Notes under the pieces: generated by a model
Database searches by the model: none
What the model was told of the DNA's origin: nothing
What the model saw: only the letters and a program-made list of their open reading frames with translations
Translations under genes and position numbers: made by a program
NCBI RefSeq assembly: GCF_044324785.1
Contig: NZ_CP172127.1
Reading direction: 5' to 3' (one strand)
Source: Escherichia coli
GTDB lineage: Bacteria > Pseudomonadota > Gammaproteobacteria > Enterobacterales > Enterobacteriaceae
Length of the DNA: 64,000 nucleotides
Part shown: positions 26,438-49,570 of the stretch, piece by piece
How the letters are laid out: the number at the start of each line of letters is the position of its first letter
How positions within the stretch are numbered: the first letter of the stretch is position 1

Positions 26438-26607
26438 ATTAAGTACAGATTAAAAACATTGATTCTTGGTTTATATCACTATGTTGTATTAATGCAGTAT
26501 TAATCCAGGCGATTGTTCTGCCTATAAGGAAATACATAGGGAATAAACGATGCTGGAAGTATTACTCTCAGCCATCATTTAACTCCCTATTACTGGTAGC
26601 GATAAAA

Positions 26608-28281: not shown

Positions 28282-28940
28282 TCATAAATAATGGATATTA
28301 TTAATTTAACTTCATAAAAAGCGCCCTGGTTAGCACTTAACGTTAATCATTAATCACAGCGTTCACTCACATGCTCAGGAGGAAACCAGTGAGATGAGTT
28401 TTCCCGTTGATAACAAATTCACCATGTGAATATTTACTACCTTTAACCGTTGTAACGAATCATCCGTTACTCTTTGATCTCCTTGCCGAACAAGTTGTTT
28501 AGTGAATGATGGCTTTCTTTTAACGTCAGCATGAATTATACGTTCAGCAAATGTATTAAATCAGCACTAAATAAATTTAATGGATACCACCATTCTGCGT
28601 CAACACTTAGTTTTTATCTGTAAAAATAGCCGCAGCCAAATTAATGCTTTTATTTTTAATAAATCATCAACCGAATAAGAGATCTTATCAGCGGTAACTA
28701 AACTCATCAGTGGGTGTTCCTTGTAACGTCATACATTACATAACTTTAAGATATACAATCAAAAAATGCATTAAAAACCGATTAAAAGCAGCAAAGTATT
28801 ACCCGGTGCACGAATTTATGACACATTTGCAGCCATTCCGCTATTCACTGACTACTTTTCAGTAATGACTGCTTTTTCATAAGGTTTCACTCCCGACAAC
28901 AATGTTGGAGTTTTATTTCCTTAGCATGGAGTAAGTAAAG

Positions 28941-31759: not shown

Positions 31760-33415
31760 TTAAAACGTTTCCCAGTTCTCCTCGCTATCTGCCACAGCCA
31801 TTTTACGCGGCGTAGCTGGCGTCACGGTTTTTACCACAGCCGATGTTTCACGCTGATGTTGCTGAATCCGGAACACTGCCACAGCTTCGGTCAGGCGACT
31901 GGCCTGCTCTTCCAGCGCGGCGGCGGCGGCGGCAGATTCTTCCACCAGCGCGGCGTTCTGTTGAGTTACCCGGTCCATCTCAGCAACCGCTAAGCCAACC
32001 TGATCGATACCACGGCTCTGCTCATCAGAAGCAGAAGCAATTTCGCCCATAATGTCCGTCACGCGGGTCACTGCGCTGACAATCTCCGCCATTGTTTCCC
32101 CGGCGCTTTCGACCAGCGTAGAGCCAACATCCACTTTCCCCACCGAGTCTTCAATCAGGCTTTTAATTTCACGAGCCGCCTGGGCGCTGCGCTGGGCCAG
32201 ATTACGCACTTCTCCCGCGACCACCGCAAAACCGCGCCCTTGCTCACCCGCACGCGCAGCCTCAACCGCGGCGTTCAAAGCCAGAATATTGGTCTGGAAG
32301 GCAATGCCGTCAATTACGCTGATAATATCGGCGATTTTCTGCGAGCTGGTGGAGATATCGCGCATAGTCTGCACCACGTTATCTACCACTTTGCCGCCAC
32401 GTTGCGCCGTTTCAGAAGCACTTAACGCCAGGTGGCTGGCCTGGCGCGCATTCTCGGCGTTCTGTTTCACCGTTGCGGTCAGTTGCTCCATGCTGGCTGC
32501 CGTCTCTTCCAGCGAAGCGGCCTGTTGCTCGGTGCGCGAAGAGAGATCGTTATTGCCGGTGGCGATTTCGCTGGCACCGCTATAGATGGCATTGGCCCCG
32601 TTGCGCACATCACCGACGGTACGCATTAGCTCTCCCTGCATATGGCGCAAACTCTCTGCCAGTTGCCCCATCTCATTAGAGCCATCCACCTCAATCGGTT
32701 TCACCAGATCGCCGCCTGCAATATGACGAATGCTGTCAATCAGGCGATTCATTGGCGCTACCAACGAGGCTTTAATACCGAACCAGACGGCGAAGATGAC
32801 CGCCAGTACGACGATCATCACGCCCACCAGGATCCACATCGCCTGGCTGTAGGAGGCATTATTATCGCTGACGGCGATATCATAGAGCCGATCGTTTTGC
32901 TCCATGTAAGCCACATACTGCTTCTCGAAACCGTCCTGATATCCCTGGGTCGGCTGATCAAAGAACTCGTTGATTTTGCCTGCACCTAACAGTTGGATCA
33001 GCTCCGCCAGCGCATTGTGATAAATATCGTAATTACGTTTGATCTCTGCCGCTGCGGCGGTGCTCTGACGCGGGTCACGCGGCAACGCTTCGTAATCCGC
33101 CCAGTTTTTTTCCGCCTGTTTCAGCGAAATACTGGCACTCTGCATCAGCTCAGCAACGGTTGAACCGCTACCAATATTATTCTGATCCATCATGTAGCGG
33201 ATACCCGCGCGGTTGAGGGTGTTACGCGTCTGCAACAACGCGACCCAGCTGCCATTCAGCGTGGATTGCTGCTGGCGAATGGTTTGTAAAACAGTGAAAT
33301 TTTCTTTGTCATTCTTTAAGGCATTAAAGAACAGACCGCCTGATGTCAGTTGTAAAAGGCCAAAAACGGCCAAAACCAGCAGTAAGCTGGTCACAATTTT
33401 GATACGTTTTAACAT
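31760..33415 (-). CDS. tsr: Methyl-accepting chemotaxis protein I (serine chemoreceptor Tsr, 551 aa)
   Basis: [43 protein letters not shown]... with highly conserved MCP signalling domain and C-terminal NWETF pentapeptide. Confidence 0.95.
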
Positions 33416-33644
33416 GGTTTCTCTTTCCTGTGGACCGATGCAAGATTTTCGGCCTGGAAAGGAAAAACTTTATAGTCAACGTCATTATCACCGTCGAACA
33501 TAATTCGTTTTGTTTCATTTTTGTACAAAGCTAAGAGCGTCATGAATAAAAAAATTAATCTTGTTTATTTATTTCACGCTATTTATCGCAATTTTGCACA
33601 ATGATGCATCGTATGATGCGCGTTTTAAAGAAAGGATATCTGAT

Positions 33645-34187
33645 ATGTTAAACCGTGATTTTGATCATCTATCAACCCTGCTCCATCTTTTTTTTGAGCG
33701 TGACGATATTTGCCAAAAGCTTAATATTATTGATCAAAACGAGATCACCGGCTGGGAAGTTTGGTTCCAGGTGGAGTTTGCTAATATGCTTTGCTCAACA
33801 GACCATGAATGGTGGCGTGAACAAACACTATCCTGTGATATGCGCAAAAAGCCCGAGCGCCCCACCCTACGTACAGATTTTTTATTACGCAAAAAAGGCT
33901 GGGCACAAGATAGCTATATTGCGCTTGAAATTAAACAGAACAGAGATGCGACAAGTTGTGTTAAAAATATGATCGCAGACTTAGAGAAAAGCGCCAAAAT
34001 TAAACGTTCTGAGCTTGATTTGCGTAGTTTCTGGACTTTAGGTATTACTCCGATGATCGACAGAGAAAGACTGAACTCTCTCATCGACAGTTATTTAGAT
34101 GAGAAATTCTATCTTACTAAATCTCGTAAAAAACACGTTTTACTTAAAGAAATAAAAAATACACCATATTGCTATATTGTTATTTAA
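33645..34187 (+). CDS. Hypothetical protein, possible PD-(D/E)XK nuclease fold (180 aa)
   Basis: ORF in an AT-rich islet; start chosen at ATG 33645 with AAAGGA Shine-Dalgarno 9 nt upstream (track ORF begins 33561). Contains E...D-x14-E-x-K pattern (WEVWFQVEF ... RTDFLLRKKGWAQDSYIALEIK). No recognised K-12 counterpart. Confidence 0.5.
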   Translation: MLNRDFDHLSTLLHLFFERDDICQKLNIIDQNEITGWEVWFQVEFANMLCSTDHEWWREQTLSCDMRKKPERPTLRTDFLLRKKGWAQDSYIALEIKQNRDATSCVKNMIADLEKSAKIKRSELDLRSFWTLGITPMIDRERLNSLIDSYLDEKFYLTKSRKKHVLLKEIKNTPYCYIVI

Positions 34188-34479
34188 CATTTACGGCATG
34201 AATATAATTTTTAGATGAGTAACACAACTGAGGGCTAAAACTCGCCTTGGTTGTGATCATCATCACATAAATAGCCTTCATAAACCTTGCTCAATACCGC
34301 TCAACCGCAAAACTGACCGCTTACATCCCTAAAATAACCACTCAGTTATTTACCTTACTTTACGCGCGCGTAACTCTGGCAACATCACTGCAGGATAGCG
34401 GTCAATTTACCTCCTCAAACGCAACGCAAACCTAGAACGGCTTCGGCCAACTATTAATCAATACATGCCAGGTTTTACT

Positions 34480-36630
34480 ATGGATACTAAAAAGATATTC
34501 AAGCACATACCCTGGGTGATTCTCGGAATCATCGGTGCATTCTGCCTCGCGGTAGTTGCATTACGTCGGGGGGAGCACGTCAGCGCCCTGTGGATCGTGG
34601 TCGCCTCTGTGTCGGTGTATCTGGTGGCGTATCGCTACTACAGTCTGTACATCGCCCAGAAGGTAATGAAACTCGACCCCACGCGCGCGACGCCTGCGGT
34701 TATTAACAACGACGGTCTGAACTACGTTCCGACCAACCGTTACGTGTTGTTTGGTCACCACTTCGCCGCTATCGCCGGTGCCGGTCCGCTGGTTGGTCCG
34801 GTGCTCGCCGCGCAGATGGGCTACCTGCCTGGCACGCTGTGGCTGCTGGCGGGGGTCGTGCTGGCCGGTGCGGTACAGGACTTTATGGTGCTGTTTATCT
34901 CCTCTCGCCGTAACGGCGCATCTCTCGGTGAGATGATCAAAGAAGAGATGGGACCAGTACCGGGGACTATCGCGCTGTTTGGCTGTTTCTTAATCATGAT
35001 CATCATCCTCGCCGTCCTGGCGCTGATTGTGGTTAAAGCCCTGGCCGAAAGTCCGTGGGGTGTCTTCACCGTTTGCTCAACCGTACCGATTGCGCTGTTT
35101 ATGGGTATCTACATGCGCTTTATCCGTCCGGGGCGTGTGGGTGAAGTCTCTGTCATTGGTATCGTGCTGCTGGTTGCCTCTATCTACTTCGGTGGCGTGA
35201 TTGCACACGATCCGTACTGGGGTCCGGCACTGACCTTTAAAGACACCACCATTACCTTCGCGCTGATTGGCTATGCGTTTGTTTCCGCACTGCTGCCAGT
35301 GTGGCTGATCCTCGCACCGCGCGACTATCTGGCAACCTTCCTGAAAATCGGTGTTATCGTCGGCCTGGCGCTGGGTATCGTGGTGCTCAACCCGGAACTG
35401 AAAATGCCTGCGATGACTCAGTACATTGACGGTACTGGCCCGCTGTGGAAAGGCGCTCTGTTCCCGTTCCTGTTCATCACCATCGCCTGTGGTGCGGTAT
35501 CTGGCTTCCACGCGCTGATCTCTTCCGGTACGACGCCGAAACTGCTGGCTAATGAAACCGACGCGCGTTTCATCGGTTATGGCGCAATGCTGATGGAGTC
35601 CTTCGTGGCGATTATGGCGCTGGTTGCAGCGTCCATCATCGAACCGGGTCTTTACTTCGCGATGAACACCCCGCCTGCGGGCCTTGGCATCACCATGCCT
35701 AACCTGCATGAAATGGGTGGCGAGAACGCGCCGATCATCATGGCGCAGTTGAAAGACGTTACCGCACACGCGGCGGCGACCGTCAGCTCCTGGGGCTTCG
35801 TGATTTCGCCAGAGCAGATCCTGCAAACCGCGAAAGACATTGGTGAGCCTTCTGTCCTGAACCGTGCAGGTGGTGCGCCGACACTGGCGGTAGGTATCGC
35901 TCACGTGTTCCATAAAGTGCTGCCAATGGCTGACATGGGCTTCTGGTATCACTTCGGTATTCTGTTCGAAGCCCTGTTCATCCTGACCGCGCTGGATGCC
36001 GGTACCCGTTCTGGCCGCTTTATGCTGCAAGACCTGCTGGGTAACTTCATCCCGTTCCTGAAAAAAACCGACTCTCTGGTTGCTGGTATCATCGGTACTG
36101 CGGGTTGTGTGGGTCTGTGGGGCTACCTGCTGTATCAGGGCGTGGTCGATCCGCTGGGCGGCGTTAAGAGCCTGTGGCCGCTGTTCGGTATCTCCAACCA
36201 GATGCTGGCAGCCGTGGCGCTGGTACTGGGTACCGTTGTGCTGATTAAGATGAAGCGCACCCAATACATCTGGGTAACTGTTGTTCCGGCTGTATGGCTG
36301 CTTATCTGCACCACCTGGGCGCTGGGCCTGAAACTGTTCAGCACCAACCCGCAGATGGAAGGCTTCTTCTACATGGCAAGCCAGTACAAAGAGAAGATTG
36401 CTAACGGTACTGACCTGACGGCGCAGCAGATTGCCAACATGAACCACATCGTTGTGAACAACTACACCAACGCAGGCCTGAGTATTCTGTTCCTGATTGT
36501 GGTGTACAGCATCATCTTCTACGGTTTCAAAACCTGGCTGAAGGTGCGTAACAGCGACAAACGTACTGACAAAGAAACACCGTACGTTCCAATCCCGGAA
36601 GGCGGCGTGAAGATCTCTTCGCACCACTAA
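34480..36630 (+). CDS. btsT: CstA-family pyruvate/H+ symporter BtsT (YjiY, 716 aa)
   Basis: Protein MDTKKIFKHIPWVILGIIGAFCLAVVALRRGEHVSALWIVVASVSVYLVAYRYYSLYIAQKV...; internal start chosen. Confidence 0.9.
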   Translation: MDTKKIFKHIPWVILGIIGAFCLAVVALRRGEHVSALWIVVASVSVYLVAYRYYSLYIAQKVMKLDPTRATPAVINNDGLNYVPTNRYVLFGHHFAAIAGAGPLVGPVLAAQMGYLPGTLWLLAGVVLAGAVQDFMVLFISSRRNGASLGEMIKEEMGPVPGTIALFGCFLIMIIILAVLALIVVKALAESPWGVFTVCSTVPIALFMGIYMRFIRPGRVGEVSVIGIVLLVASIYFGGVIAHDPYWGPALTFKDTTITFALIGYAFVSALLPVWLILAPRDYLATFLKIGVIVGLALGIVVLNPELKMPAMTQYIDGTGPLWKGALFPFLFITIACGAVSGFHALISSGTTPKLLANETDARFIGYGAMLMESFVAIMALVAASIIEPGLYFAMNTPPAGLGITMPNLHEMGGENAPIIMAQLKDVTAHAAATVSSWGFVISPEQILQTAKDIGEPSVLNRAGGAPTLAVGIAHVFHKVLPMADMGFWYHFGILFEALFILTALDAGTRSGRFMLQDLLGNFIPFLKKTDSLVAGIIGTAGCVGLWGYLLYQGVVDPLGGVKSLWPLFGISNQMLAAVALVLGTVVLIKMKRTQYIWVTVVPAVWLLICTTWALGLKLFSTNPQMEGFFYMASQYKEKIANGTDLTAQQIANMNHIVVNNYTNAGLSILFLIVVYSIIFYGFKTWLKVRNSDKRTDKETPYVPIPEGGVKISSHH

Positions 36631-37861: not shown

Positions 37862-37892
37862 GGCCGCCATGTGGCGGCCTGAATTATTTTTT
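37862..37892 (+). terminator. Rho-independent terminator of yjiA
   Basis: ggccgcca-tg-tggcggcc hairpin followed by tgaattatttttt; its T-tract overlaps the stop codon of the convergent BrnA-like ORF. Confidence 0.8.
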
Positions 37893-38186
37893 GTTCTGAT
37901 CGCGCAGCATCGCTTCACGTAAAATTGCGTTCAGGCGAGTTTGATAGCCTTTACCTGGTCGCTTCAACCATTCCATCACATCAGCATCAATACGCACCGA
38001 AGCCTGAGTTTTCAATGGCCGATAAAACTTACCGCGTTCTGCGTTAGACCATTGCTCATCGCTGGAAGGTGGGATATCACTGTAATCAATCTCTTCGTCG
38101 GATTTATTCGCCAGAGCCTTCAGTTCGGCCTCATGCTGCACATCGAGTGTAGAGGAGGTCCCTCGTTTATGTTTAACCATGCTCAT
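37884..38186 (-). CDS. BrnA-like (DUF4415/CopG-type) putative antitoxin, about 100 aa
   Basis: C-terminal ...SVRIDADVMEWLKRPGKGYQTRLNAILREAM resembles the ribbon-helix-helix tail of BrnA-family antitoxins; start chosen at ATG 38186 with GAGAGGA Shine-Dalgarno (track ORF extends to a GTG at 38252). Confidence 0.6.
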   Translation of the reverse strand: MSMVKHKRGTSSTLDVQHEAELKALANKSDEEIDYSDIPPSSDEQWSNAERGKFYRPLKTQASVRIDADVMEWLKRPGKGYQTRLNAILREAMLRDQNKK

Positions 38187-38324
38187 AGCGATTCCTCTCT
38201 TTACGATCTGCTTTTCGTGCACTGATGATTCGAATGTTGGAAATAGCATCACGTTTTAGGAAAAGATAGGGAAGTTGATATGAAGGGGCTGGATGGCAGC
38301 ATTGGGACACCATCCAGCATTTAT

Positions 38325-39059
38325 TCAAACCTGATAGCAATCCACCAAAAATGCCATCATTTCACTGGCATCTTTGCTGTGATAAAAGCGCACCATTTTG
38401 CTGTTGAACTCCAGCGCACGAGCTGCGGGTACACTAATGGGATTGTAACCGTGGCGCATTAACCAGCCGTTCATCATATGGCGACTGGTACGCTTGTTGC
38501 CATCAAAGAAAAACTGAAAATAAGTACCAAATAAAAACATTGCCAGCGCCCCTTCGAATGGTGGCATCTCTTTTATTTGTGCCACACCTGCGGCGAATAT
38601 TCGATTCAGTTCAGGTGCACCTGCTTCAGTGGCTGGTGGAAAATGAGTGCCCAGTTCACCGAGATGAACGCGCGCATTGTAATGTAACTCTTCACCTTCG
38701 CCGCGAAAAACGCCCCACTCCAGCGCCTCATTACGCGCAATAATGCCGTTAAGTAACGTGAACGTTTTCTTATCAAGGTCAAAACGCCCGAATTGCACAA
38801 GTTCAATCAGTTTTTTTGCGCTATCTGCCAGGTTCAACACCTGCTCAGTATCACTGACCTTATGCCCGCCAACAGTGACGCCATCGAGCAACGTTTTAAC
38901 TTCAACAAAGGTATAGGGGTTATTTTCCAGTTGCGCGGCATCCCAGACAAACCCAGCCATATGCGTTTTGAAGGTAAATAAGGCTGCGCGCGTACCGACA
39001 ATTTGCATCGCCGGGATGGCATTTGCATTCCAGCTCAGGTCCAGTAGTTTGGTTGTCAT
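38325..39059 (-). CDS. Divergent Fic/Doc-family-like protein (244 aa), catalytic-motif His replaced by Gln
   Basis: Motif QFFFDGNKRTSR (aa 181-192; DNA 38484..38519) aligns with the Doc motif HIFNDANKRTA and the Fic core HPFx[DE]GNGRxxR; AAGGA Shine-Dalgarno 8 nt upstream of the ATG. Confidence 0.5.
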   Translation of the reverse strand: MTTKLLDLSWNANAIPAMQIVGTRAALFTFKTHMAGFVWDAAQLENNPYTFVEVKTLLDGVTVGGHKVSDTEQVLNLADSAKKLIELVQFGRFDLDKKTFTLLNGIIARNEALEWGVFRGEGEELHYNARVHLGELGTHFPPATEAGAPELNRIFAAGVAQIKEMPPFEGALAMFLFGTYFQFFFDGNKRTSRHMMNGWLMRHGYNPISVPAARALEFNSKMVRFYHSKDASEMMAFLVDCYQV

Positions 39060-39102: not shown

Positions 39103-41202
39103 TTAAACCATCGCGTTATCCATCTGCTTTTCAAATGCCTGACGAATTAATCCCATCACATAAGGAAGCTCAGAAAGATCGCTGAAACCTATTTCAACAT
39201 CGCCATTGCCCCAACGGCCTATATCTGTGACATCTTTAGCCATACATTTTGGGTCAACCAGTTCATGGAATGGCATATTTAGTGATAAACGTAAGCGGCT
39301 TTTTTGCGGCACCACATCAACAAAATTCGTCTCCGCTTTGAAGGCAACATAGAGCTTCAATATTTCTCGCGTAACCCCAGCGTCCAGCGTCATAACGGCA
39401 TCAGAAAGGCTGTCAAAAAGTACGCGGATGTGCGTACCTTCTTCAAGTTGCGGGAAATCAGCAAGGACATATCCCGTTCCTCGTTCAACGACAGTGCGAT
39501 AACGAGCCAACACGTCTTCCGAAAGTTTGGGGATCGCCCAGACGTCTATTGCCAGCTCGGACAGACGTTCCGCTCTCTTTTGTATCGCTGCACGATCCCA
39601 TATTTCACATTGCCCTAACCCCGTGTTCAGGCGTAATGGACTTTCCTTAAAGCCACCTTTTATATCTCGTTTCTTCGCAAATGGACGGTCGCTGTAGCTT
39701 GAGTTATAGCCAGTTAACGTTAAATTACCCAACGTATGGAGCCACTTTTTATGGATACGCTTCCATTCCGGACCAAGGTCATCGCGCCACTTCACCGATA
39801 AATTAGGGTTCTGCGGCATGATATGTTCAATCGTATAAGTGTCAACATAGACCCGTTCTTTACGATCGTGGTTTTCAAATCTGCGTAGCCAATAGCTGCG
39901 ATTACGGAAGTTGTAGAGATCGCGAGTTTTCAGTTCACGTTGAAATTCATCATCATCCGGGAAACGACGGTAGGAAGGCAGATCCAGCAAATGCGCCGCA
40001 ATGCTCTCCAGATAACGCTCTTTATCCAGCACTTTGTAAAACGTAGCGAAGGTTTTAGTAAATGAGTTGGTGGGAATTGCACAGACTGCGCGCCGGAAGA
40101 TATACGACTCAATTAAACGCGTGGCACCTAAAAAATCCACAGCAGAAAGGATCCCCTGTTTATAGTCGTGATAAAGCACCAACAGGAACGGCCATGCAGC
40201 ATCAACTTTCAGTTCCCGCAGATCCTGAAACGCCATCTTTAAGGTTTTATCCTTTTCGCTATCCAGCGCCATCGCACAAAAATAGTCAGCAAACGTACGA
40301 ATATCCGCAACCAGCGCCTCCATCCCGCTATCTATTACACCAGGTTTTCGCGCATAGCGTTTAAAGGCTTCATAGACATCACCAATTCGCGGAATCTCAC
40401 CTGTTTTTACCGTCAGGTAATTACGCATAAAACTGTCGAAATAGTCAGTGTATCCCTTCTGACCAAACGCCAGCTCCATGGGCCGCCAGTAATCGTCGTA
40501 CAGTTGGCTTTGATGTTCTGGCTCCAGCCCCATCAGAACATAGTTGCGTACTAGATCCGCCTGACTCAGCGCTTTTCCTGTTGAGTTCATGCTTTCAAAG
40601 ATTAGTTGCGGATTATCCTGACCGCGATTCAAGGCGACATCCACAATCAGCAGTTTGGAAAGTCCCTGACATAACGCGGTGAAATTGCCGTGGAGTTTGC
40701 CTATTTGCTCATGGAAAAACTCAAAATTCTCTTTCACGCGTAGAGAGCAATTTTCTGCCAGCGGTTTTTGTCTAATCAATGCCAGCAGGCTCTCTCTGTC
40801 CGTTTGCGTAAGCAGTAACTTAAATCCACGCTTGCCCGATTCATACGGATTGAGCAGATAATAGTTTCGTAATTTCATGGCGGAGAAACCATCCATCACC
40901 TCGTCATCGCCAAGGTGTCTGGACAACGCTTCCAGCAATAACATCGCCGTTGTCAGGCGTTGCTGACCGTCAATCATCAGTAAGGGAGAGATCCCCGAAA
41001 CCTGATATAGGCCCTGTTCGATATACACCACCGAGCCGATAAAATGCGCCGGGATATCATCACGCTGCCCGGCACGTATTACATCGTCCCAGAGCTGGCG
41101 GCACTGTTCCTCTGACCATGAATAAGTACGCTGATAAATGGGAATAACGAATTGCTGAGAGCGTTTTAGAAAATCGAGTAATCGGGCTTCGGTGGCTTTC
41201 AT
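39103..41202 (-). CDS. GmrSD/SspE-like type IV restriction protein (DUF262 N-terminal NTPase domain + DUF1524 HNH-like nuclease domain), 699 aa
   Basis: N-terminal FVIPIYQRTYSW and DGQQRLTT (DUF262/ParB-like signatures); C-terminal TYTIEHIMPQN...LHTLGNLTL (His-Me/HNH-like of DUF1524); AGGAG Shine-Dalgarno; additional C-terminal extension of about 130 aa. Confidence 0.75.
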   Translation of the reverse strand: MKATEARLLDFLKRSQQFVIPIYQRTYSWSEEQCRQLWDDVIRAGQRDDIPAHFIGSVVYIEQGLYQVSGISPLLMIDGQQRLTTAMLLLEALSRHLGDDEVMDGFSAMKLRNYYLLNPYESGKRGFKLLLTQTDRESLLALIRQKPLAENCSLRVKENFEFFHEQIGKLHGNFTALCQGLSKLLIVDVALNRGQDNPQLIFESMNSTGKALSQADLVRNYVLMGLEPEHQSQLYDDYWRPMELAFGQKGYTDYFDSFMRNYLTVKTGEIPRIGDVYEAFKRYARKPGVIDSGMEALVADIRTFADYFCAMALDSEKDKTLKMAFQDLRELKVDAAWPFLLVLYHDYKQGILSAVDFLGATRLIESYIFRRAVCAIPTNSFTKTFATFYKVLDKERYLESIAAHLLDLPSYRRFPDDDEFQRELKTRDLYNFRNRSYWLRRFENHDRKERVYVDTYTIEHIMPQNPNLSVKWRDDLGPEWKRIHKKWLHTLGNLTLTGYNSSYSDRPFAKKRDIKGGFKESPLRLNTGLGQCEIWDRAAIQKRAERLSELAIDVWAIPKLSEDVLARYRTVVERGTGYVLADFPQLEEGTHIRVLFDSLSDAVMTLDAGVTREILKLYVAFKAETNFVDVVPQKSRLRLSLNMPFHELVDPKCMAKDVTDIGRWGNGDVEIGFSDLSELPYVMGLIRQAFEKQMDNAMV

Positions 41203-41486
41203 GAATGACTCCTGTCAAATTGCACTGGCAAACGGCGTCATTATGCTGCGAATAAAAAATAAAAGTTAGCGTCTTTGTTTCTGCAAAAATACCATTCTAG
41301 GATAAATCAAAATATATTAAGAAACACCTCAACACGCATTCATTAGAACAATTAATATTTCCAATTCATATTTATAACGTATTGAAAATGATCGTGTTTT
41401 TGATCATCACAGCAATAGTTTGATATAACAAAGCATTCACTTCACATTGAATATCCCCCTCTTTTTCAGGGCAAGGAATGCTTTTT

Positions 41487-43832
41487 ATGTCATCAACTAA
41501 TTTCAGCCAGATTGCAGCCTTCCTGTGGTCTGTCGCCGACCTGTTACGCGGCGATTTTAAACAATCACAATATGGACGAATTATTCTTCCTTTTACCCTT
41601 TTGCGTCGTCTGGAATGCGTACTCGAAACAACGAAAGACGCGGTCATTACCGAGGCGCAAAAAGTAAAAGCCATGAAACTGCCGGAGGAAGCCCAGGAGA
41701 AAATGATCCTGCGGGCGACTAATGGCCTCACGTTCTTCAATGCCTCAGCGATGGATCTCAGCAAAATGGGGCAAAATGGCATACAGGACAACCTGGAAAA
41801 CTACATCCAGTCGTTCTCTTCGGATGCCCGCGAAATTTTCGAACACTTCAAGTTCAGCGAGTTTGTCGGACAGCTGGCGGATGCAAACTTACTGTTCAAA
41901 GTGGTGCAAATATTCGCTAAAGCAGATTTATACCCGGAGCACGTCACCAACCACGATATGGGGCTGGTATTTGAGGAGCTGATCCGACGTTTTGCCGAGA
42001 GTTCTAACGAAACCGCCGGGGAGCACTTTACCCCGCGTGATATCGTCAATCTGACCACCTCGCTGGTGTTTTTCGATGATGATGATGCACTCAATAAAGA
42101 CGGCATCATCCGCACCATTTACGACCCAACAGCAGGAACCGGCGGCTTTCTCTCTTCCGGCATGGAGTACGTCCACAAACAAAACCCCAATGCCGTGATG
42201 CGCGCGTTTGGTCAGGAGTTAAACCCGGAATCCTACGCCATCTGCAAAGCCGACATGCTGATTAAGGGCCAGGACGTCAGCCTTATCAAACTCGGCAACA
42301 CCCTTTCCAACGATCAACTCCCCGCAGAAAAATTCGATTACATGCTCTCTAACCCACCTTTCGGCGTGGACTGGAAAAAGATCGAATGCGACATCAACGA
42401 CGAGCACAAACTCCAAGGTGCTGATGGCCGCTTTGGCCCCGGCCTGCCCCGCGTCTCCGACGGTTCGTTGCTGTTTCTGCTGCACCTGATCAGCAAAATG
42501 CGCGATGCCAAAAGCGGTGGTGGGCGGATCGGCATCATTCTTAATGGCTCTCCGTTATTCACCGGCGGCGCGGGCAGCGGTGAAAGCGAGATCCGCCGCT
42601 ACATTCTGGAAGCGGATTTGCTGGAAGGCATTATCGCCCTGCCCACCGACATGTTTTACAACACCGGTATCGCTACCTATGTGTGGATTTTGTCGAATAA
42701 AAAAGCGCCTGAGCGCAAGGGCAAAGTCCAGCTTATCGACGCTAGCAACCTGTGCGGCAAGATGCGTAAATCGCTGGGGTCAAAACGCAATATTCTCGGG
42801 GAGGAGGATATTGGTTTAATCACCCGCACGTTTGGCGATTTCGAACCCGTTGCCACCACTACGCTTGCGGCGTTAGGCCTGGAGAAAGCACCCGAACAAA
42901 AATCCAGCCGGGGACGCCAGCCCGCAACAACCAAAACCGAGGCGGCAAAAACTTTTGCCAGCAAAGTCTTTCACAGCACCGAGTTTGGCTATCGTCGCAT
43001 CACCGTTGAGCGCCCGTTGCGCCTGTCGGCTCAGATAAGTGATGACGCCATTGCCACATTGCGCTTTGCGCCGAAGCCGTTTATCGCTCCGATGGCGCAA
43101 CTGTATGACGCCTTTGCTTTCCAGTGGCAGGACGGTCATTACGGCGACTTAACAGCGGTAGAAAGTGAAGCCCGCGCCATTCTTAAAGCCGATTTTAGCG
43201 AGCTGAAAGAGAAGCAAATTAAAGATCTGCTCAACAGCAAATTATGGCTGGCCCAGCGCGGGTTAATGGAAAAAGCGCGGCGTATTCAGGCGGCGATGGG
43301 TATGCAGGCGGGCGGCAAAGACACCGTTAGCAATGACTTTAATCAGTTCCAGTTGACGCTGAAAGAGGCGTTCAAAACCGCAGGCGTGAAGCTGGATGCG
43401 AAAGAGAACAAGCAGTTTATTGATGCCATTACCTGCAAAAACCCGGATGCCGAACCAGTTATCAGCAAGGTACTGAAAGAAGCAGCCCAACCGTTGTACG
43501 GCGCGTTTGAGTACCACGGAAAGGTTGTGGAGTTTGAGCCGGATGGCGACCTGCGTGATAACGAGAATGTGCCGTTAAATCCGGCGGTATCTACCAGCGA
43601 GTTGATCGAGGGTTACTTCAAAGCAGAAGTATTGCCGCACGTCGCGGATGCGTGGATTAACGCCGATAAGCGCGATGCGAAAGATGGGGATATCGGGATT
43701 GTGGGGTATGAAATTCCGTTTAATCGCCATTTTTATGTTTATCAACCGCCAAGGCCGCTGGAGGAGATTGATGCGGATCTGGATGCGGTAAGTGCTGAAA
43801 TTATGAAACTGTTGCAGGAGGTACATTCCTGA
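41487..43832 (+). CDS. hsdM: Type I restriction-modification N6-adenine DNA methyltransferase subunit HsdM (about 781 aa, with long C-terminal extension)
   Basis: SAM-binding motif [11 protein letters not shown] and catalytic motif IV NPPFG; start placed at second ATG (41487), which has AAGGA 9 nt upstream; stop overlaps hsdS start. Confidence 0.85.
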
Positions 43833-45115
43833 TGGCTACATACAAAAACTATCAACAAACCAATTTGTTAGGATTAGAAATACTTCCATCTCATTGGGAA
43901 GTAAAAAAAATTAAGCATCTATTTTCAATTGGTCGAGGTAGAGTCATATCTCAAGCGGAATTAGAAGATGAAGGTATGTATCCAGTATACTCATCGCAAA
44001 CACATAATGATGGATGCTTAGGTTATATTAATAGCTATGACTTCAATTGTGAGCAAATTACATGGACTACGGATGGTGCAAATGCTGGAACTGTTTTTCT
44101 TCGGAAAGGCAAATATAACTGCACAAATGTATGTGGAACATTACAACCAATAAATAAAGAAAACTTTTTACAATTTCATTTATATTGCTTGCAGTACATC
44201 AATCAATTTCATAAGCGCCCTGATACTAATGGGGCGAAGATAATGAATAATGAGATGGCCGAAGTATATATTCCACTACCTTCTAACCAAGAGCAATTAC
44301 GAATCACCACCTTCCTCGACCACGAAACCGCAAAAATCGATAACCTAATCGAGAAACAACAACAATTTATTGAACTATTGAAAGAAAAACGTCAGGCCGT
44401 GATTAGCCATGCGGTGACAAAAGGGCTAAATCCTGACGTGCCGATGAAAGATTCTGGAGTTGAGTGGTTGGGAGAAATGCCTGAACATTGGCATTTTACT
44501 CGAGCTAAATTTGTTTCAAACATATTTGTTCCGCAACGAAATAAGCCAGAGTTAAATGATGACATTGGTATTTTTTGGATAACAATGGAAAACATGAGTC
44601 AACCATATATAACATCTTCCTTTCAATATGTTTCTGACGTTGCAGCACTAAAATCAGGCTCAAAGATATTACCAAAAGGAGCCGTAATAGCCAGCTGCGT
44701 TGGTAATTTTGGAATTGCTGCAATCAATGAGGTCGATGTTATTATCAATCAACAATTGCAAGCATTTCAGACCTTAAGTATAAAGGCCGATTTTCTCATG
44801 GCTTTAGTTTCTATTTCTAAAAAGTATTTTGAAATCATTGGCACCGCTGCAACCCTTGCATATGTAAATAAAGAAGGTTTTGAAAATCTTCCTGTTGTTA
44901 TTCCATCGGAAAATGAACAAATTAATATTTGTAAATACATTAGAGATAAAAATAAAAAGTTTGAAATATTGATTGAGCGTTCCATGCACCAAATTGAGTT
45001 ACTCCAGGAACGCCGCACCGCCCTTATCTCCGCCGCCGTCACCGGCAAAATAGATCTCCGCAACTGGACCGCCCCCATCGCCAAAACGGAAGCACCCACG
45101 GAGGCCAGCGCATGA
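43832..45115 (+). CDS. hsdS: Type I restriction-modification specificity subunit HsdS (427 aa)
   Basis: Two AT-rich target-recognition domains separated by a conserved helical spacer (...LIEKQQQFIELLKEKRQAVISHAVTKGL...) and a matching C-terminal repeat (...ELLQERRTALISAAVTGKIDL...); translationally coupled to hsdM and hsdR. Confidence 0.85.
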   Translation: MATYKNYQQTNLLGLEILPSHWEVKKIKHLFSIGRGRVISQAELEDEGMYPVYSSQTHNDGCLGYINSYDFNCEQITWTTDGANAGTVFLRKGKYNCTNVCGTLQPINKENFLQFHLYCLQYINQFHKRPDTNGAKIMNNEMAEVYIPLPSNQEQLRITTFLDHETAKIDNLIEKQQQFIELLKEKRQAVISHAVTKGLNPDVPMKDSGVEWLGEMPEHWHFTRAKFVSNIFVPQRNKPELNDDIGIFWITMENMSQPYITSSFQYVSDVAALKSGSKILPKGAVIASCVGNFGIAAINEVDVIINQQLQAFQTLSIKADFLMALVSISKKYFEIIGTAATLAYVNKEGFENLPVVIPSENEQINICKYIRDKNKKFEILIERSMHQIELLQERRTALISAAVTGKIDLRNWTAPIAKTEAPTEASA

Positions 45116-48100
45116 ACAACGACATTACAAAAGAGCTCAACCTGCAAAACGACATCATCGCCCAGATGGTGGAAAAAGGCTGGATTGTCGGCAAAGGTGA
45201 CGGCTACGACCGGGAACGTGCGCTATACGCACAAGACGTTCTGCACTTTGTGCAAACCACCCAACCGCAAGAGTGGGAGAAATTCGCCCGCGTTTACCCC
45301 AACGACAACGAACGCCATTTCCTCGACGCGCTGGTTGCGCAGTTAAAAAAAGCCGACAGCAACGCCACCGACATCCAGTCGCGCACCTGGGGTACGCTCG
45401 GCGTACTTCGCCACGGACTGAAAATCCGCAATGCCCGTTTTTCGCTGTGTCAGTTTAAACCGGAACATAATCTCAACCCGGAAACGCTGGCGCGCTATCA
45501 GCAAAATATCTGCCGTATCGTGCCGGAACTGGTCTACAGCCCGTATGCCTCAAATAGCGTCTTTGCAGAAACGGGCGTGAAAGCCAAAAAATGGCGTATC
45601 GATCTGGTGCTGTTTATCAACGGCCTGCCGATTGCCACGCTGGAGCTGAAATCCGAATTTAAACAGGCGGTGCAGAACGCCATTGCCCAGTACAAAAAGA
45701 CCCGCCTGCCGAAGGATCCCGCGACCAATAAACCCGAACCGCTGCTGACCTTTAAGCGCGGCGCGCTGGTGCATTTTGCCGTCAGCCAGTATGACGTCTT
45801 TATGACCACCAAACTCGCGGGTGACAGCACCTTCTTCCTGCCGTTTAACAAAGGCACCAAAGACGGCGGCGCAGGCAACGAGATCCCCGAAGATACCCAC
45901 CGCTACGCCACAGATTATCTGTGGAATGAAGTGCTGCTGCCGGACAACTTATTAAAAATCCTCGCCAGTTTTGTCCATTTGCATATTGAAGAAAAAGAGG
46001 AGTGGAACGGGCTGAAAGCGAAGAAAGAGAGCCTGATTTTCCCGCGTTATCATCAGTGGGATGTGGTCAACAAACTGCTGGAGGCCGCGACGATTGAAGG
46101 AACCGGCCATAAATACCTGATCCAGCACAGCGCCGGTTCCGGTAAATCGAACTCCATTGCCTGGACCGCCCACCAGCTTTCTCGTCTGTACGACGTGAAC
46201 GGGGAAAAACAGTTCCACTCCATTATCGTGGTGACGGACCGCACGGTGCTGGACGACCAGCTTCAGGACACCATCTGGCAGTTCGAACATGCCGACGGCG
46301 TGGTCGGGCGCATCAATAACAGAGAGGGCGACGGCTCTAAATCGGAAAAGCTCGCCAACGCGCTGGAAAACTCGCAGCCGATAATCATCGTCACCATCCA
46401 GACATTCCCGTTCGTGCTGAAAGCCATCGAAAACAGCGTCAGCCTGAAGCAGCGTAAATACGCGGTGATTGCCGACGAAGCACACTCCTCGCAGAGCGGT
46501 TCTACCGCCCGTCAGCTTAAAGAAGTGCTGATGAGCGAAGAAATGGATGATGACTTGGTACTGTCGTCAGAAGATATCCTGGATGCGACCATTGCCGCCC
46601 GGAAAGGCAGCAGTAACCTGAACTACTACGCCTTTACCGCCACGCCAAAATCCAAAACCCTCGAACTTTTTGGTCGCCGTCCACGTCCCGATGAACCGGC
46701 GTCAAAAACCAATAAACCTGAGGCCTTCCACGTCTACTCCATGCGCCAGGCAATCGAAGAAGGCTTTATCCTCGATGTGCTGAAAAACTACACCAACTAC
46801 AAAGTGGCGTATCAGTTGCTGCAAAAGCTGGTAGACAAGGACCGCGAAGTCGACAGCAAGAAGGCAAAGATAAAGCTCAACCTGTGGGTGACACTGCACG
46901 ACCACAATATTTCGCAGAAGGTGAAGGTGATTGTGGAGCACTTCCGCAAACATGTGATGCATCTGCTTGGTGGCCAGGCCAAAGCGATGGTGGTCACCAG
47001 TTCGCGTAAAGCCGCCGTGCGCTATAAGCTGGCATTTGATAAATACATTAGCGAGAACAATTACCAGAAAATCAGCGCGATGGTGGCGTTTTCCGGGGAA
47101 GTTGAATTCCGGGAAGGCGACCATAACAGCCTGGCATTGTTAAACCAGAAATTTACTGAAATAAACATGAACCCCGGCCTAAAAGGGCGGGATATGCGCA
47201 AAGCCTTCGACAGCGATGATTATCAGGTCATGCTGGTTGCCAATAAATTCCAGACCGGTTTTGACCAGCCGAAGCTGTGCGCGATGTACGTGGATAAAGC
47301 CCTCGGCGGCGTCGAGTGCGTGCAGACGCTCTCCCGCCTGAACCGCACCTATCCGGGCAAAGCGGAATCAGGCACTTTTGTCCTCGATTTTTATAACGAT
47401 CCGGGCGAGATCCTCGGCGCATTCCAGCCCTATTTCCAGACGGCGGAACTGACCGATGTCAGCGATCCGCAGCAGGTATTCGATCTGTTTGAAAAACTGC
47501 GCGCCACGCAGATTTTTCAGTGGCATGAAGTCGAGCAGTTCTGCGAGGCGTACTTCATCAAAAATAAATCGAATGCGGCGATCAGTAATATCTGTAAACC
47601 GGCGGTCGAACGCTGGAAAAAGCGTTATCTGATGGCAATAGACGCCTATTTGACCGCCAAAGAGATGTTCGAGCGCACTAAAAAAACGGGCGATACGGTG
47701 TTAATAACCAATGCGGAAAACAGTTTTAAAGCCTGTAAGCAGGAGAAAGATCGTCTGGAGATTTTCAAGAAAGATCTCGGCAGCTTTGTTCGCTTTTATG
47801 AGTTTATGTCGCAAATCGTTGAGTACGATGACAAGGATCTGGAAAAGCTAAGCCTGTTTGCGCGCCATTTACGCCCACTGCTGCATGAGCAACGTCTGGA
47901 AGAGGATGAAATTGATCTCAGTAATGTGGAGATGAGTCACTATCGTTTATCGAAAATCCATGAGCAAGATTTACGCTTACAGGAAGAAACGTCTGACTAT
48001 ACGCTGGATGCAAGTAATGATATTGGTACGGCAAAAGCGAAAGATAAAAAAGAGGAGTTTTTATCGCAGGTGCTTTCTCGGATGAATGAATTATTCATTA

Positions 48101-48375
48101 GCGACCATTTGACCGACAAAGATATGATCAGCAATGCTTTTGCGGTGTATAACAAAATAACTGAAAATGAAAATGTTATGACACAAATTAAAAACAATCC
48201 GCCAGAACAAGCGATTCTTGGTGACTTCCTCCAGGCAGTTGATAATGCTGTAATGGACAGTAATGACGCTCGGCAAGAATTTATGTTGCAATATTTATCC
48301 GATCCAGCTCGGGCAAAGGGCTTTGCTTATCTGATGTTTGATATGCTAACGGGGAAAATTGCTTTGCCAACATAA
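45112..48375 (+). CDS. hsdR: Type I restriction endonuclease subunit HsdR (1087 aa)
   Basis: N-terminal PD-(D/E)XK-like nuclease region (IDLVLFINGLPIATLELK), SF2 helicase motif I SAGSGKSNSIAW and motif II VIADEAHSS (DEAH); ATGA overlap with hsdS. Confidence 0.85.
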   Translation: MNNDITKELNLQNDIIAQMVEKGWIVGKGDGYDRERALYAQDVLHFVQTTQPQEWEKFARVYPNDNERHFLDALVAQLKKADSNATDIQSRTWGTLGVLRHGLKIRNARFSLCQFKPEHNLNPETLARYQQNICRIVPELVYSPYASNSVFAETGVKAKKWRIDLVLFINGLPIATLELKSEFKQAVQNAIAQYKKTRLPKDPATNKPEPLLTFKRGALVHFAVSQYDVFMTTKLAGDSTFFLPFNKGTKDGGAGNEIPEDTHRYATDYLWNEVLLPDNLLKILASFVHLHIEEKEEWNGLKAKKESLIFPRYHQWDVVNKLLEAATIEGTGHKYLIQHSAGSGKSNSIAWTAHQLSRLYDVNGEKQFHSIIVVTDRTVLDDQLQDTIWQFEHADGVVGRINNREGDGSKSEKLANALENSQPIIIVTIQTFPFVLKAIENSVSLKQRKYAVIADEAHSSQSGSTARQLKEVLMSEEMDDDLVLSSEDILDATIAARKGSSNLNYYAFTATPKSKTLELFGRRPRPDEPASKTNKPEAFHVYSMRQAIEEGFILDVLKNYTNYKVAYQLLQKLVDKDREVDSKKAKIKLNLWVTLHDHNISQKVKVIVEHFRKHVMHLLGGQAKAMVVTSSRKAAVRYKLAFDKYISENNYQKISAMVAFSGEVEFREGDHNSLALLNQKFTEINMNPGLKGRDMRKAFDSDDYQVMLVANKFQTGFDQPKLCAMYVDKALGGVECVQTLSRLNRTYPGKAESGTFVLDFYNDPGEILGAFQPYFQTAELTDVSDPQQVFDLFEKLRATQIFQWHEVEQFCEAYFIKNKSNAAISNICKPAVERWKKRYLMAIDAYLTAKEMFERTKKTGDTVLITNAENSFKACKQEKDRLEIFKKDLGSFVRFYEFMSQIVEYDDKDLEKLSLFARHLRPLLHEQRLEEDEIDLSNVEMSHYRLSKIHEQDLRLQEETSDYTLDASNDIGTAKAKDKKEEFLSQVLSRMNELFISDHLTDKDMISNAFAVYNKITENENVMTQIKNNPPEQAILGDFLQAVDNAVMDSNDARQEFMLQYLSDPARAKGFAYLMFDMLTGKIALPT

Positions 48376-48440
48376 AAATACGTTAATAGCCGGGGTCGTA
48401 CTTTCTACCCCGGCCATATTATTTACAATAAGGAATAGCT

Positions 48441-49154
48441 ATGCTGAAGATGATTAAAGATTTTAAATTCAAAAAATACATTAAAAAATTACGTGAAGAA
48501 GGTTTGTTATTTTATGTTTCTTTCGGGTTTATATTTACATTGTTAATGGAAGTTGATGATCGATTACCGTACTATCTTCAACAAGACTTCTTTTTTGATA
48601 CACTTATAGGATTTATGCCAATCAATATATTCTTTGTTTTGATTTGCACATATATATTTTTCAATGCCGTCCATGCGCTTATTTCACCCTATAAATTTCA
48701 AAGAATTGGTGAGAAATTCCTCTCTGAACTTGATAAAAGAACACAACAAATTGGCTTTATTATTTCATTCATATGTTTTGGCATGACTTTGTTTTGTGCA
48801 CTGGTGTGGTTGCTGTTTTTTGAGATGAATACTGAAAGTTACTACGCAAAATATACATTAATTTTTTTGGCTGTTTTTATCATTATGATTATGTTTTCTT
48901 CAGCAGTTAATCCAGTAATGAACAGAATATCACAAAAAATTAAGGAATCGGACTCACATGGAAATTCAAAAATAATTCTTATAATTATAATCATTACATT
49001 ATCGCTATTATTACCAATTGCGTGCATTATCAATAAAAATAAAACAATTGAAATCAATATCAAGAAAGAAACTTATCAGCAAATAAAAGAAAAAACAAAA
49101 ATGAAACCAGAGGATTATATCAAAAAATTGATTACTGATATTAAATTCAACTAA
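48441..49154 (+). CDS. Hypothetical multi-pass membrane protein (237 aa), strongly AT-rich
   Basis: ORF 66 bp downstream of hsdR on the same strand; several hydrophobic segments; Lys/Ile-rich composition, much lower GC than its neighbours. Confidence 0.55.
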   Translation: MLKMIKDFKFKKYIKKLREEGLLFYVSFGFIFTLLMEVDDRLPYYLQQDFFFDTLIGFMPINIFFVLICTYIFFNAVHALISPYKFQRIGEKFLSELDKRTQQIGFIISFICFGMTLFCALVWLLFFEMNTESYYAKYTLIFLAVFIIMIMFSSAVNPVMNRISQKIKESDSHGNSKIILIIIIITLSLLLPIACIINKNKTIEINIKKETYQQIKEKTKMKPEDYIKKLITDIKFN

Positions 49155-49158
49155 TATC

Positions 49159-49192
49159 TATATGTACCCTGGTTTCTTCCAGGGTACATATA
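49159..49192. repeat. Perfect 14-bp inverted repeat (hairpin) at the right edge of the variable cassette
   Basis: tatatgtaccctgg-tttctt-ccagggtacatata; lies between the convergent membrane-protein gene and yjiS. Confidence 0.7.
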
Positions 49193-49229
49193 AAAAGTTA
49201 ATATCCTGATTTATTCTCAACATCCTCTA

Positions 49230-49394
49230 TCACTCCACATCCTCCCTGCGTAACCCAATATCCCTCAACCGCTCATCACTCATCTGCTGTAACACCCGCC
49301 GGGCCTGCATTTGCCGCCGCCAACGCCTCACTGCCTGCCAGAGTTGCACAAGTCCAATAAACGGTGCTTTAGCTTTGTTTTCGTGAAATTCCAT
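49230..49394 (-). CDS. yjiS: DUF1127 small protein YjiS (54 aa)
   Basis: Hand-translated minus-strand ORF MEFHENKAKAPFIGLVQLWQAVRRWRRQMQARRVLQQMSDERLRDIGLRREDVE with the DUF1127 LSDxxLRDIGL motif; AGGAGG Shine-Dalgarno; too short for the ORF track. Confidence 0.75.
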   Translation of the reverse strand: MEFHENKAKAPFIGLVQLWQAVRRWRRQMQARRVLQQMSDERLRDIGLRREDVE

Positions 49395-49570
49395 CTGCTG
49401 CCTCCTCATCTTTCAGAGGCTTCATCATCCGCCTTCTGGCAGTTCACAATACAGATGCAAATATTAGTTTTATTTAACATACAGACAGGTTAAAACAGCA
49501 TCTGCATCCGGTTTTTTAGCCTCATCTGTACCGGTTTTTCTTTCTGTATGGTCCAAATAAGGAATACAGC

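Follow-up and report, generated by a model that had tools for sequence, protein, structure and literature searches.

Modular, AT-rich target-recognition domains of a Type I hsdS gene and signs of their exchange in the Escherichia coli immigration control region

EcoKI and StySPI (Type IA) as well as EcoR124 and EcoDXXI (Type IC) have the same modular HsdS layout as the system described here, and their specificity changes by recombination in the conserved regions. [quoted passage not shown] One of them, EcoMII of E. coli EC958, recognises AAC N4 CTTT, and its HsdR is 92% identical to that of StySBLI (PMC4659465). It resembles the locus studied here in that it occupies the slot between yjiA and yjiS/yjiR, has the gene order hsdM-hsdS-hsdR and encodes an HsdR of 1087 aa (PMC4659465). 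The hsdM and hsdS genes of EcoKI share a single base (PMC3510504).

An hsdMSR operon between yjiA and yjiR

The stretch of DNA analysed here (64,000 nucleotides, hereafter "the window") carries a chromosomal hsdM-hsdS-hsdR operon between yjiA and yjiS/yjiR, that is, in the E. coli immigration control region, with GmrSD as its neighbour:

41478..43832, + strand: hsdM, methyltransferase subunit, 784 aa; Pfam HsdM_N and N6_Mtase
43832..45115, + strand: hsdS, specificity subunit, 427 aa, GC 0.377; two Pfam Methylase_S stretches
45112..48375, + strand: hsdR, translocase/nuclease subunit, 1087 aa; Pfam HSDR_N, ResIII/SWI2_SNF2 and T1R_D3-like

Read directly in the sequence, the TGA stop of hsdM and the ATG of hsdS have one base in common (TGATG), as in EcoKI (PMC3510504), while the hsdS stop and the hsdR start overlap by 4 nt (ATGA); through these overlaps, translation of the three genes is probably coupled. 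The region from yjiA to yjiR is 99.1-99.5% identical to that of E. coli N3 (CP031609), whose gene, annotated as restriction endonuclease subunit S, is 100% identical to the window hsdS. The exact HsdS protein was found on 281 contigs, and the hsdMSR family of the window in 116 of 5426 complete genomes; a literature search found no paper citing the protein, strain or assembly accessions.

The open reading frame at 43832-45115 is a real gene of an ordinary, known kind, the specificity subunit of a Type I restriction-modification system. PF01420 (Methylase_S) matches its product in two stretches of one polypeptide (E=1.1e-40), and the protein aligns to the M. jannaschii S subunit 1YF2 across both target-recognition domains (TRDs) and both conserved helices. 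It combines structural features of a Type I S subunit, namely two TRDs, conserved helical regions and an operon with hsdM and hsdR, and would be expected to direct m6A methylation and restriction at a bipartite target. HsdM has a C-terminal extension of about 320 aa without annotation.

The operon was compared with families IA, IC and ID. Type IA was rejected, as EcoKI M matches only residues 157-406 of HsdM, the catalytic core (E=1.4e-11), and the NCBIfam models score far below their cut-offs (TIGR00497 for hsdM, 89.6 bits against 242.75; NF007278 for HsdS, 40 against 662). Type IC was rejected as well, since EcoR124II M again matches the catalytic core only (E=8.2e-26) and EcoR124II S gives E=3.2e-5. 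Type ID (StySBLI and EC958 EcoMII) was rejected because amino acid identity to the EC958 proteins is 24% for HsdR, 27% for HsdM and 24% for HsdS, which makes the two systems unrelated (24-27%). Judged from the length of HsdM and the NCBIfam scores, membership of Type IB (EcoAI) is unlikely. By these comparisons, the operon belongs to a Type I family of the immigration control region that is not IA, IC or ID and to which no prototype was assigned. Type ID had been favoured at first, since presumed ST131 strains occurred among the backbone matches and the ST131 paper describes a StySBLI-like hsdM-S-R operon.

Module map and exchange of target-recognition domains

To delimit the modules of hsdS, we set their boundaries where homology to seven further alleles of this backbone breaks off:

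43837..44311, + strand: variable module 1 (aa 3-160; TRD1 together with an N-terminus that is not canonical), GC 0.341, GC3 0.266
44312..44491, + strand: central conserved region (aa 161-220, coiled-coil helix and linker), GC 0.433, GC3 0.433
44492..44989, + strand: variable module 2 (TRD2, aa 221-386), GC 0.329, GC3 0.247
44990..45115, + strand: C-terminal conserved region (aa 387-427), GC 0.611; homology resumes at 44988-45002
43800..44457, + strand: exchanged TRD1 cassette, 658 bp, with 100% DNA identity to allele L010 of E. coli (GCA_019587845.1)

Homology to the seven alleles ends at 43836 and restarts at 44312, and the N-terminus of the window HsdS lacks the "MAGLNKYQAYPEYRDSGVEW" motif that other alleles carry. 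DNA homology among alleles within hsdS is limited to 44312-44491, where identity is 91-94%, and 44990-45115, which agrees with a protein alignment of nine alleles in which conserved central and C-terminal helical regions flank hypervariable TRDs. The layout is the canonical one of TRD1, central helix, TRD2 and C-terminal helix. From the Type I literature and the alignment to 1YF2, each TRD would read one half of a bipartite target, while the two conserved helices would pair with each other, determine the spacing and bind two HsdM subunits. New specificities arise when a TRD is swapped as a cassette through homologous recombination in the conserved stretches on either side of it. In this operon these stretches are the final ~35 bp of hsdM, the central region of hsdS, and its C-terminal region together with the start of hsdR.

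Such exchange is borne out by the distribution of TRDs among alleles. Alleles on the window's backbone share 95-97% DNA identity in hsdM and hsdR and have unalignable TRDs, and hybrid alleles have one TRD in common. The eleven E. coli alleles in the comparison include at least five TRD1 types and at least seven TRD2 types. Overall, TRDs assort combinatorially, in the pairings A1B1, A1B6, A1B7, A1B8, A6B1, A7B1, A2B2, A3B2, A5B2, A2B3, A3B5 and A4B4. The TRD1 of the window recurs, 99-100% identical at the amino acid level, in other E. coli HsdS proteins with unrelated TRD2s; the L010 and L014 alleles are of this kind. The TRD2 of the window is unalignable with the remaining E. coli alleles of the backbone, and in Klebsiella, Morganella, Lelliottia, Cronobacter and Pantoea relatives of it (75-80% amino acid identity) are paired with unrelated TRD1s. 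Sequence comparison shows cassette replacement for both TRDs of the window allele.

One such case is L010. Between its DNA and that of the window, the last upstream difference lies at 43799 and the first downstream one at 44458, with nothing different over 43800-44457, placing the crossover inside the central region at 44457/44458. The flanks of this tract are 3-6% diverged. Directly upstream, 20 of 400 hsdM positions differ; in the distal central region 9 of 34 do so, and TRD2 cannot be aligned. At about 3% divergence, the probability of finding no difference in 658 bp is ~3e-9. Either allele could have been the donor in this exchange. Recombination has also left its mark outside hsdS, as hsdM is a fine patchwork in which the differences per 200 bp against eight alleles range from 0-1 to 15-19, and strain N3 differs from the window at 36 sites in hsdM, none in hsdS and one in hsdR. 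Taken together, the L010 tract, the hsdM patchwork and the N3 comparison bear out the recent recombination at this locus that the initial annotation had proposed. Its other proposal, TRD shuffling, is also correct, although the proof is comparative, and base composition, which had been offered as the footprint, does not provide it.

As to the origin of the TRDs, relatives were taken from a search with full-length HsdS, since protein searches with the TRDs alone gave only matches shorter than 290 aa. No near donor was found, the closest relatives of each TRD outside E. coli being at most 80% identical (amino acids), and among plasmids the closest match reached 48% for TRD1 and 39% for TRD2; with no plasmid relative above 48%, no recent donor is visible. 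The expectation that the specificity differs from that of a donor backbone holds only weakly, in that alleles on the same hsdM/hsdR backbone have different TRDs, and no donor was found to anchor it. Searching the TRDs for characterised relatives, as had been suggested, did yield relatives, but none of the names of the matched sequences gives a recognition sequence, and a PDB search with HsdS returned only distant S subunits.

Base composition and age of the TRD pair

The two AT-rich stretches that had drawn attention to the gene are real: GC is 0.335 over 43860-44250 and 0.332 over 44500-44990, compared with 0.377 for the whole of hsdS, 0.518 for hsdM, 0.501 for hsdR and 0.494 for the 64-kb window. 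Chance was rejected as their source by the composition tests (both TRDs against hsdM and hsdR, Fisher p=7.5e-24). Of equal-length segments across the 64 kb, about 3-4% are as AT-rich as the TRDs, because the window holds ten other low-GC tracts. The conserved repeats had been called GC-normal, which neither of them is. The central region is intermediate in GC (0.433; p=0.014 against the TRDs, p=0.049 against hsdM and hsdR), forming part of a GC3 gradient that runs from 0.25-0.27 in the TRDs through 0.43 to about 0.61-0.62 in hsdM and hsdR, and the C-terminal region, at 0.611, lies above normal. As the initial annotation had predicted, the profile across hsdS is not flat, but the BIC-optimal change-point segmentation of 42500-46500 returned a single AT-rich block (43796-45001, GC 0.352, with flanks of 0.53 and 0.55) and not two separate troughs. 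Its edges at 43796 and 45002 are sharp and match the homology breakpoints, the left one coinciding with the left edge of the tract identical to L010.

Does this composition record a recent change of specificity, with the TRDs as unameliorated foreign DNA in a GC-normal backbone? The sharp edges at the homology breakpoints, the distance between a GC3 of 0.25 and the flanking 0.61-0.62, and the demonstrably recent recombination at the locus are what such a history would leave. Nevertheless, we consider it improbable. Equally AT-rich TRDs occur in all seven other alleles on the backbone, and the AT-rich hsdS profile is also present in genes of two other E. coli Type I families, EC958 EcoMII (0.375 against 0.515 for its hsdM) and L009, where HsdM is shorter and DNA identity to the window in the central region is no more than ~70%, as well as in a Klebsiella relative (L018). 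The argument that largely refutes it comes from L012, a colinear hsdMSR operon of another member of the Enterobacterales that carries both TRDs (~79% amino acid identity). It is 77.5% identical to the window in DNA (HsdM, HsdS and HsdR, 81, 79 and 83% in amino acids), and dS has reached 1.2-2.2, which is synonymous saturation, with a TRD dN of 0.10-0.125, the same as in hsdM and hsdR; yet the GC3 of its TRDs is still 0.24. Nor is a recent donor visible, and the allele is widespread. Since AT-richness is common to all alleles examined and was kept in L012 at dS >1, it provides no clock for exchange, and the initial step from AT-richness to recency has to be given up.

A different possibility is that the AT-richness is a by-product of the amino acids that TRDs use (Asn, Lys, Ile, Phe, Tyr) and has no history at the nucleotide level. 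The FYMINK fraction is indeed 0.34-0.40 in the TRDs against 0.28-0.30 in hsdM and hsdR, with slightly lower GC1 and GC2. If the TRD proteins are written in the codon usage of hsdM and hsdR, however, the predicted GC is 0.47-0.49 where 0.33-0.34 is seen, and the predicted GC3 is 0.63-0.65 where 0.25-0.27 is seen, so that amino acid composition explains no more than roughly one quarter of the GC deficit. This refutes it as the main cause and leaves it very unlikely; what makes the TRDs AT-rich is chiefly the composition of their synonymous sites. We give practically no weight to the notion that a phase-variable shufflon, with site-specific inversion among several hsdS copies, generates the mosaic. 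Such systems are known in Streptococcus pneumoniae and mycoplasmas (PMC4948785, PMC7557576), but there is one hsdS, with no silent hsdS fragments and no recombinase between yjiA and yjiR, and a search of 41000-49500 found no meaningful inverted or direct repeats; repeat search and gene content led us to reject it.

The recurrence of AT-richness across alleles and the comparison with L012 indicate that the AT-rich mosaic is long-lived and the pairing of TRD1 with TRD2 old. With a dN/dS of about 0.09, the pair appears to be an old combination under purifying selection, a standing E. coli allele that was not newly assembled, as judged from a single lineage comparison (L012 and L013, one contig each from a pair of related samples). 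A similar picture would result if hsdS had been transferred as a whole at a later time and had then diverged. P0185 and P0186, at 51-59%, are candidates for further operons with both TRDs. AT-richness itself is a lasting feature of TRD cassettes that extends over alleles, families and hosts, and it shows where the modules begin and end without dating any exchange. It is no fixed constant and partly tracks the host, since in a Pseudomonas relative (L017) hsdS lies only mildly below hsdM (about 0.40-0.50 against 0.53).

It is tempting to speculate that the persistent AT-richness is actively maintained, a reading we regard as possible, if on the doubtful side. TRD interiors, which cannot pair with other alleles, might escape GC-biased gene conversion and drift to an AT-biased mutational equilibrium while the flanks recombine often; alternatively, selection might favour AT-rich, rare-codon TRDs, for example through H-NS silencing or throttled HsdS synthesis. 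GC-biased gene conversion in bacteria is debated. In favour of this, the flanks are demonstrably recombination-hot while TRD exchange is confined to whole cassettes, GC3 rises from the TRDs through the central region to hsdM and hsdR, and the pattern is stable over dS >1 and recurrent across families. On the other hand, the 3' end of hsdR (47800-48372) has a low GC3 too (0.41) though it is conserved among alleles, and a low-GC cassette pool with turnover explains the data equally well. The stronger statement, that the mosaic is an actively maintained equilibrium and no passive relic, with TRD interiors held near a GC3 of 0.25 past one synonymous substitution per site next to conserved sequence near 0.6, seems to us rather unlikely. 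Were the equilibrium real, hsdS would be a small, naturally occurring model for studying how recombination drives GC evolution in bacteria.

As a whole, we hold it to be very probable that this is an hsdS of an immigration control region Type I system with a predicted role in specificity, shaped by cassette exchange, with stable AT-richness and an old TRD pair.

Comparison with described Type I systems

The practical weight of the locus is small. It represents a textbook modular hsdS that RefSeq has already annotated. It does offer a clean case from nature in which a TRD cassette was exchanged, its breakpoints mapped to ~43800 and 44457, and a caution that low GC in a TRD is no evidence for recent transfer but a standing property of the cassettes. 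The hsdMSR operon of the window represents a fourth family in the E. coli immigration control region, beside IA, IB and ID, and with its five or more TRD1 and seven or more TRD2 types it would contribute to barriers to DNA exchange between strains.

Among described systems, IA and IC differ from it in that the window HsdM has 784 aa, the gene order is M-S-R and the reading frames fully overlap. EC958 EcoMII, whose hsdS is equally AT-rich, has an HsdM of 539 aa and an Mrr-type enzyme as its neighbour in place of GmrSD. KpnBI (Type IE, Klebsiella pneumoniae), whose target is CAAA N6 RTCA, reportedly has an unusually long hsdM (about 876 aa), a single base common to hsdM and hsdS, and no more than 25-33% identity with families IA-ID (Chin et al. 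2004); that length differs from the 784-786 aa of the window's family. Klebsiella HsdS proteins of 437-445 aa match the central region of this family at 90-97%. Finally, in the hsdS inversion shufflon of S. pneumoniae the TRDs are likewise the exchanged unit and the conserved repeats the crossover sites, whereas exchange of the kind seen in the window takes place between the alleles of different strains, by homologous recombination and on an evolutionary timescale.

The hsdS locus and its surroundings

The hsdS gene is flanked by hsdM and hsdR. Its start codon has one base in common with the stop of hsdM (TGATG), and its own stop overlaps the hsdR start by 4 nt (ATGA).

Genes of the operon
41478-43832: hsdM, 784 aa, Pfam HsdM_N and N6_Mtase, adjoining hsdS
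43832-45115, plus strand: hsdS, 427 aa, two Pfam Methylase_S stretches
45112-48375: hsdR, 1087 aa, HsdR-type helicase/nuclease, adjoining hsdS

In E. coli N3, which is 99.1-99.5% identical to the window over ~30 kb (30845-60395), the counterpart genes carry the annotation of Type I subunits M, S, and R and lie within the immigration control region, between yjiA and yjiS/yjiR, with a GmrSD-family enzyme adjoining. HsdS is alignable with 1YF2, the M. jannaschii S subunit, across the two recognition domains and the two conserved helices. The Pfam domains of HsdM stop at residue 458, and its ~320 C-terminal residues (~460-784) have no family match; this long form (777-786 aa) also occurs in Klebsiella, Pseudomonas, and other Enterobacterales relatives.

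Upstream of hsdM lies an intact GmrSD-family Type IV restriction gene (39103-41202, minus strand; 699 aa, GmrSD_N + GmrSD_C + DUF5655), whose N3 counterpart is interrupted by an IS4 insertion; Pseudomonas relatives of this hsdMS family likewise adjoin GmrSD-type genes. Between yjiA and GmrSD (37884-39059) are a Fic-family gene (38325-39059, minus strand) and a BrnT/BrnA toxin-antitoxin remnant, with BrnT truncated in N3. Immediately 3' of hsdR, a very AT-rich ORF of 237 aa (48441-49154, plus strand; GC 0.23-0.33), annotated as "hypothetical protein," keeps its position in all E. coli loci with this hsdM/hsdR backbone; its DUF898 match is sub-threshold only, and it matches no NCBIfam model.

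Composition of hsdS and its modules

The initial annotation had described hsdS as a mosaic of two AT-rich target-recognition domains (TRD1 and TRD2) and GC-normal conserved repeats. The GC of hsdS is 0.377, versus 0.518 in hsdM, 0.501 in hsdR, and 0.494 in the window, and the two stretches singled out at that time have values of 0.335 and 0.332. We set the module limits independently of composition, at the points where the DNA alignment with seven further E. coli alleles of the same hsdM/hsdR backbone breaks off and resumes.

Modules of hsdS (C-terminal GC3 comes to 0.69 or 0.71 according to how the stop codon is treated)
43837-44311: variable 1 (TRD1), GC 0.341, GC3 0.266
44312-44491: central conserved, GC 0.433, GC3 0.433
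44492-44989: variable 2 (TRD2), GC 0.329, GC3 0.247
44990-45115: C-terminal conserved, GC 0.611, GC3 ~0.70

The TRDs differ in composition from hsdM and hsdR combined (p=7.5e-24). The central region falls between the two, differing from the TRDs at p=0.014 and from hsdM/R at p=0.049. The mosaic thus holds as regards the AT-rich TRDs and the high GC of the C terminus, whereas calling the central repeat GC-normal was an overstatement. BIC-optimal segmentation of 42500-46500 returned a single AT-rich block (43796-45001), not two, with edges falling at the homology breakpoints. When the TRD proteins were recoded with hsdM/hsdR codon usage, the expected GC was 0.47-0.49 and the expected GC3 0.63-0.65, compared with observed values of 0.33-0.34 and 0.25-0.27; about three quarters of the TRD GC deficit is therefore synonymous, with amino acid composition contributing little.

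At its 3' end, hsdR also has low GC over ~570 bp (47800-48375; GC 0.41, GC3 0.41), yet this stretch is 96-97% conserved among alleles, so that AT-richness at the locus extends beyond hypervariable sequence. Elsewhere in the window, GC also drops below 0.40 (over 400 bp) at 17601-18600, 25101-25600, 26151-26800, 27951-29400, 33251-34500, 57401-60000, and 62201-62650.

Cassette exchange and the age of the TRD pair

Comparison of alleles shows that TRD shuffling at this hsdS is real, for TRD1 and TRD2 alike. Of 5426 complete E. coli genomes, 116 have the backbone, and in 114 of these at least 80% of the query is covered; N3 excepted, all align as three separate stretches that leave out the TRDs, and N3 is the only complete E. 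coli genome with the window's hsdS allele. In the set of eight alleles retrieved, TRD1 types combine with TRD2 types independently. In a full-length HsdS protein search scored segment by segment, TRD1 was found at 94-100% amino acid identity beside unrelated TRD2 in other enterobacterial proteins, mostly from E. coli, and TRD2 at 75-80% beside unrelated TRD1 in proteins of Morganella, Lelliottia, Klebsiella, Cronobacter, and Pantoea. One allele, L010 (E. coli GCA_019587845.1), shows zero DNA differences from the window over 43800-44457, flanked by 20 differences in the 400 bp of hsdM before 43800 and 9 in the 34 bp after 44457; its TRD2 is unalignable and its hsdR diverges by 3.8%. Another, L014, has one difference over 43800-44280. 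These shared tracts are recent cassette exchanges, each bounded by one crossover at the 3' end of hsdM and by another that falls within the central region or where that region begins. The hsdM gene is itself a patchwork, differences per 200 bp from any one allele ranging from 0-1 to 15-19; between the window and N3, there are 36 differing sites at 41.5-43.5 kb (in hsdM), 0 in hsdS, and 1 in hsdR. These comparisons bear out the earlier proposal of TRD shuffling and recent recombination at the locus, where we saw no indication of a phase-variable shufflon.

The C-terminal region of hsdS together with the opening ~190 bp of hsdR (44990-45300) carries 27-32 differences in ~300 bp versus L010 and L014, the rest of hsdR being much less diverged; this suggests that TRD2 exchanges carry this flank with them. 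The MAGLNKYQAYPEYRDSGVEW motif, in the other alleles a repeat of the central MKDSGVEWLGE motif, is missing from the HsdS N terminus of the window allele (43832-43900). Its variant N terminus, MATYKNYQQ..., accompanies the TRD1 lineage in distant relatives (the HsdS proteins P0001 and P0015, and the locus L012).

Composition had also been read as the footprint of shuffling and a sign of recency, which fails because the TRDs are AT-rich in all alleles sampled and persist as such in L012. TRD GC is 0.32-0.41 in all seven other alleles, and the two-trough profile recurs in the hsdS of two further E. coli Type I systems, the unrelated EC958 EcoMII and L009 (shorter HsdM; central region only ~70% identical at the DNA level). 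A Klebsiella relative of TRD2 has a GC3 of 0.30 versus 0.66 in its own hsdM. L012 settles the question. On this contig, from another member of the Enterobacterales, HsdR clusters at ≥90% with those of Obesumbacterium, Serratia, Pectobacterium, and Buttiauxella. The L012 hsdMSR is colinear with the window operon (77.5% DNA identity, hsdS unbroken; protein identity 81% for HsdM, 79% for HsdS, and 83% for HsdR), with a dS of 1.2-2.2 in every segment. In spite of this synonymous turnover, the L012 TRDs have a GC3 of 0.24 (flanks, 0.55-0.59), so that the mosaic is a long-lived state and AT-richness does not indicate recency. dN is 0.125 for TRD1 and 0.102 for TRD2, next to 0.119 for hsdM and 0.109 for hsdR; the TRD pair appears to have codiverged with its own operon under purifying selection, which argues for an old combination rather than a new assembly. 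The exact HsdS protein occurs on 281 contigs, and we found no near-identical TRD donor in the protein collection (next-best relatives, ≤80% identical) or on plasmids.

Taken together, hsdS is a modular gene with cassette exchange via conserved flanks and stable synonymous AT-richness. The TRDs might be kept AT-rich by a low-GC cassette pool, by escape from GC-biased conversion, or by selection. Going by established Type I biology, each TRD would read one half-site, and the conserved helices would determine the spacing and bind a pair of HsdM subunits; the window allele would then have one half-site in common with L010 and L014 and a target distinct from those of alleles with other TRDs. The mosaic is a real but ordinary feature, and the original observation was largely right.

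Relation to known Type I systems

With the window system, none of the NCBIfam models for hsdM, hsdR, and hsdS reaches its cut-off. Type IE (KpnBI) is a candidate family. L009 (E. coli 1585m1, NZ_CP086391.1 4455021-4463204; HsdM, 660 aa) represents a second, related hsdMSR family; matches to its hsdS central region, at 60-80%, are present in 81 complete E. coli genomes, and its operon adjoins a recombinase and a RelB/DinJ antitoxin. Type ID, assumed at first, is ruled out: EC958 EcoMII, reported to be StySBLI-like (PMC4659465), occupies the same chromosomal slot as the window system but is only 24-27% identical to it. With EcoKI (IA) and EcoR124 (IC), the match is limited to the catalytic core.
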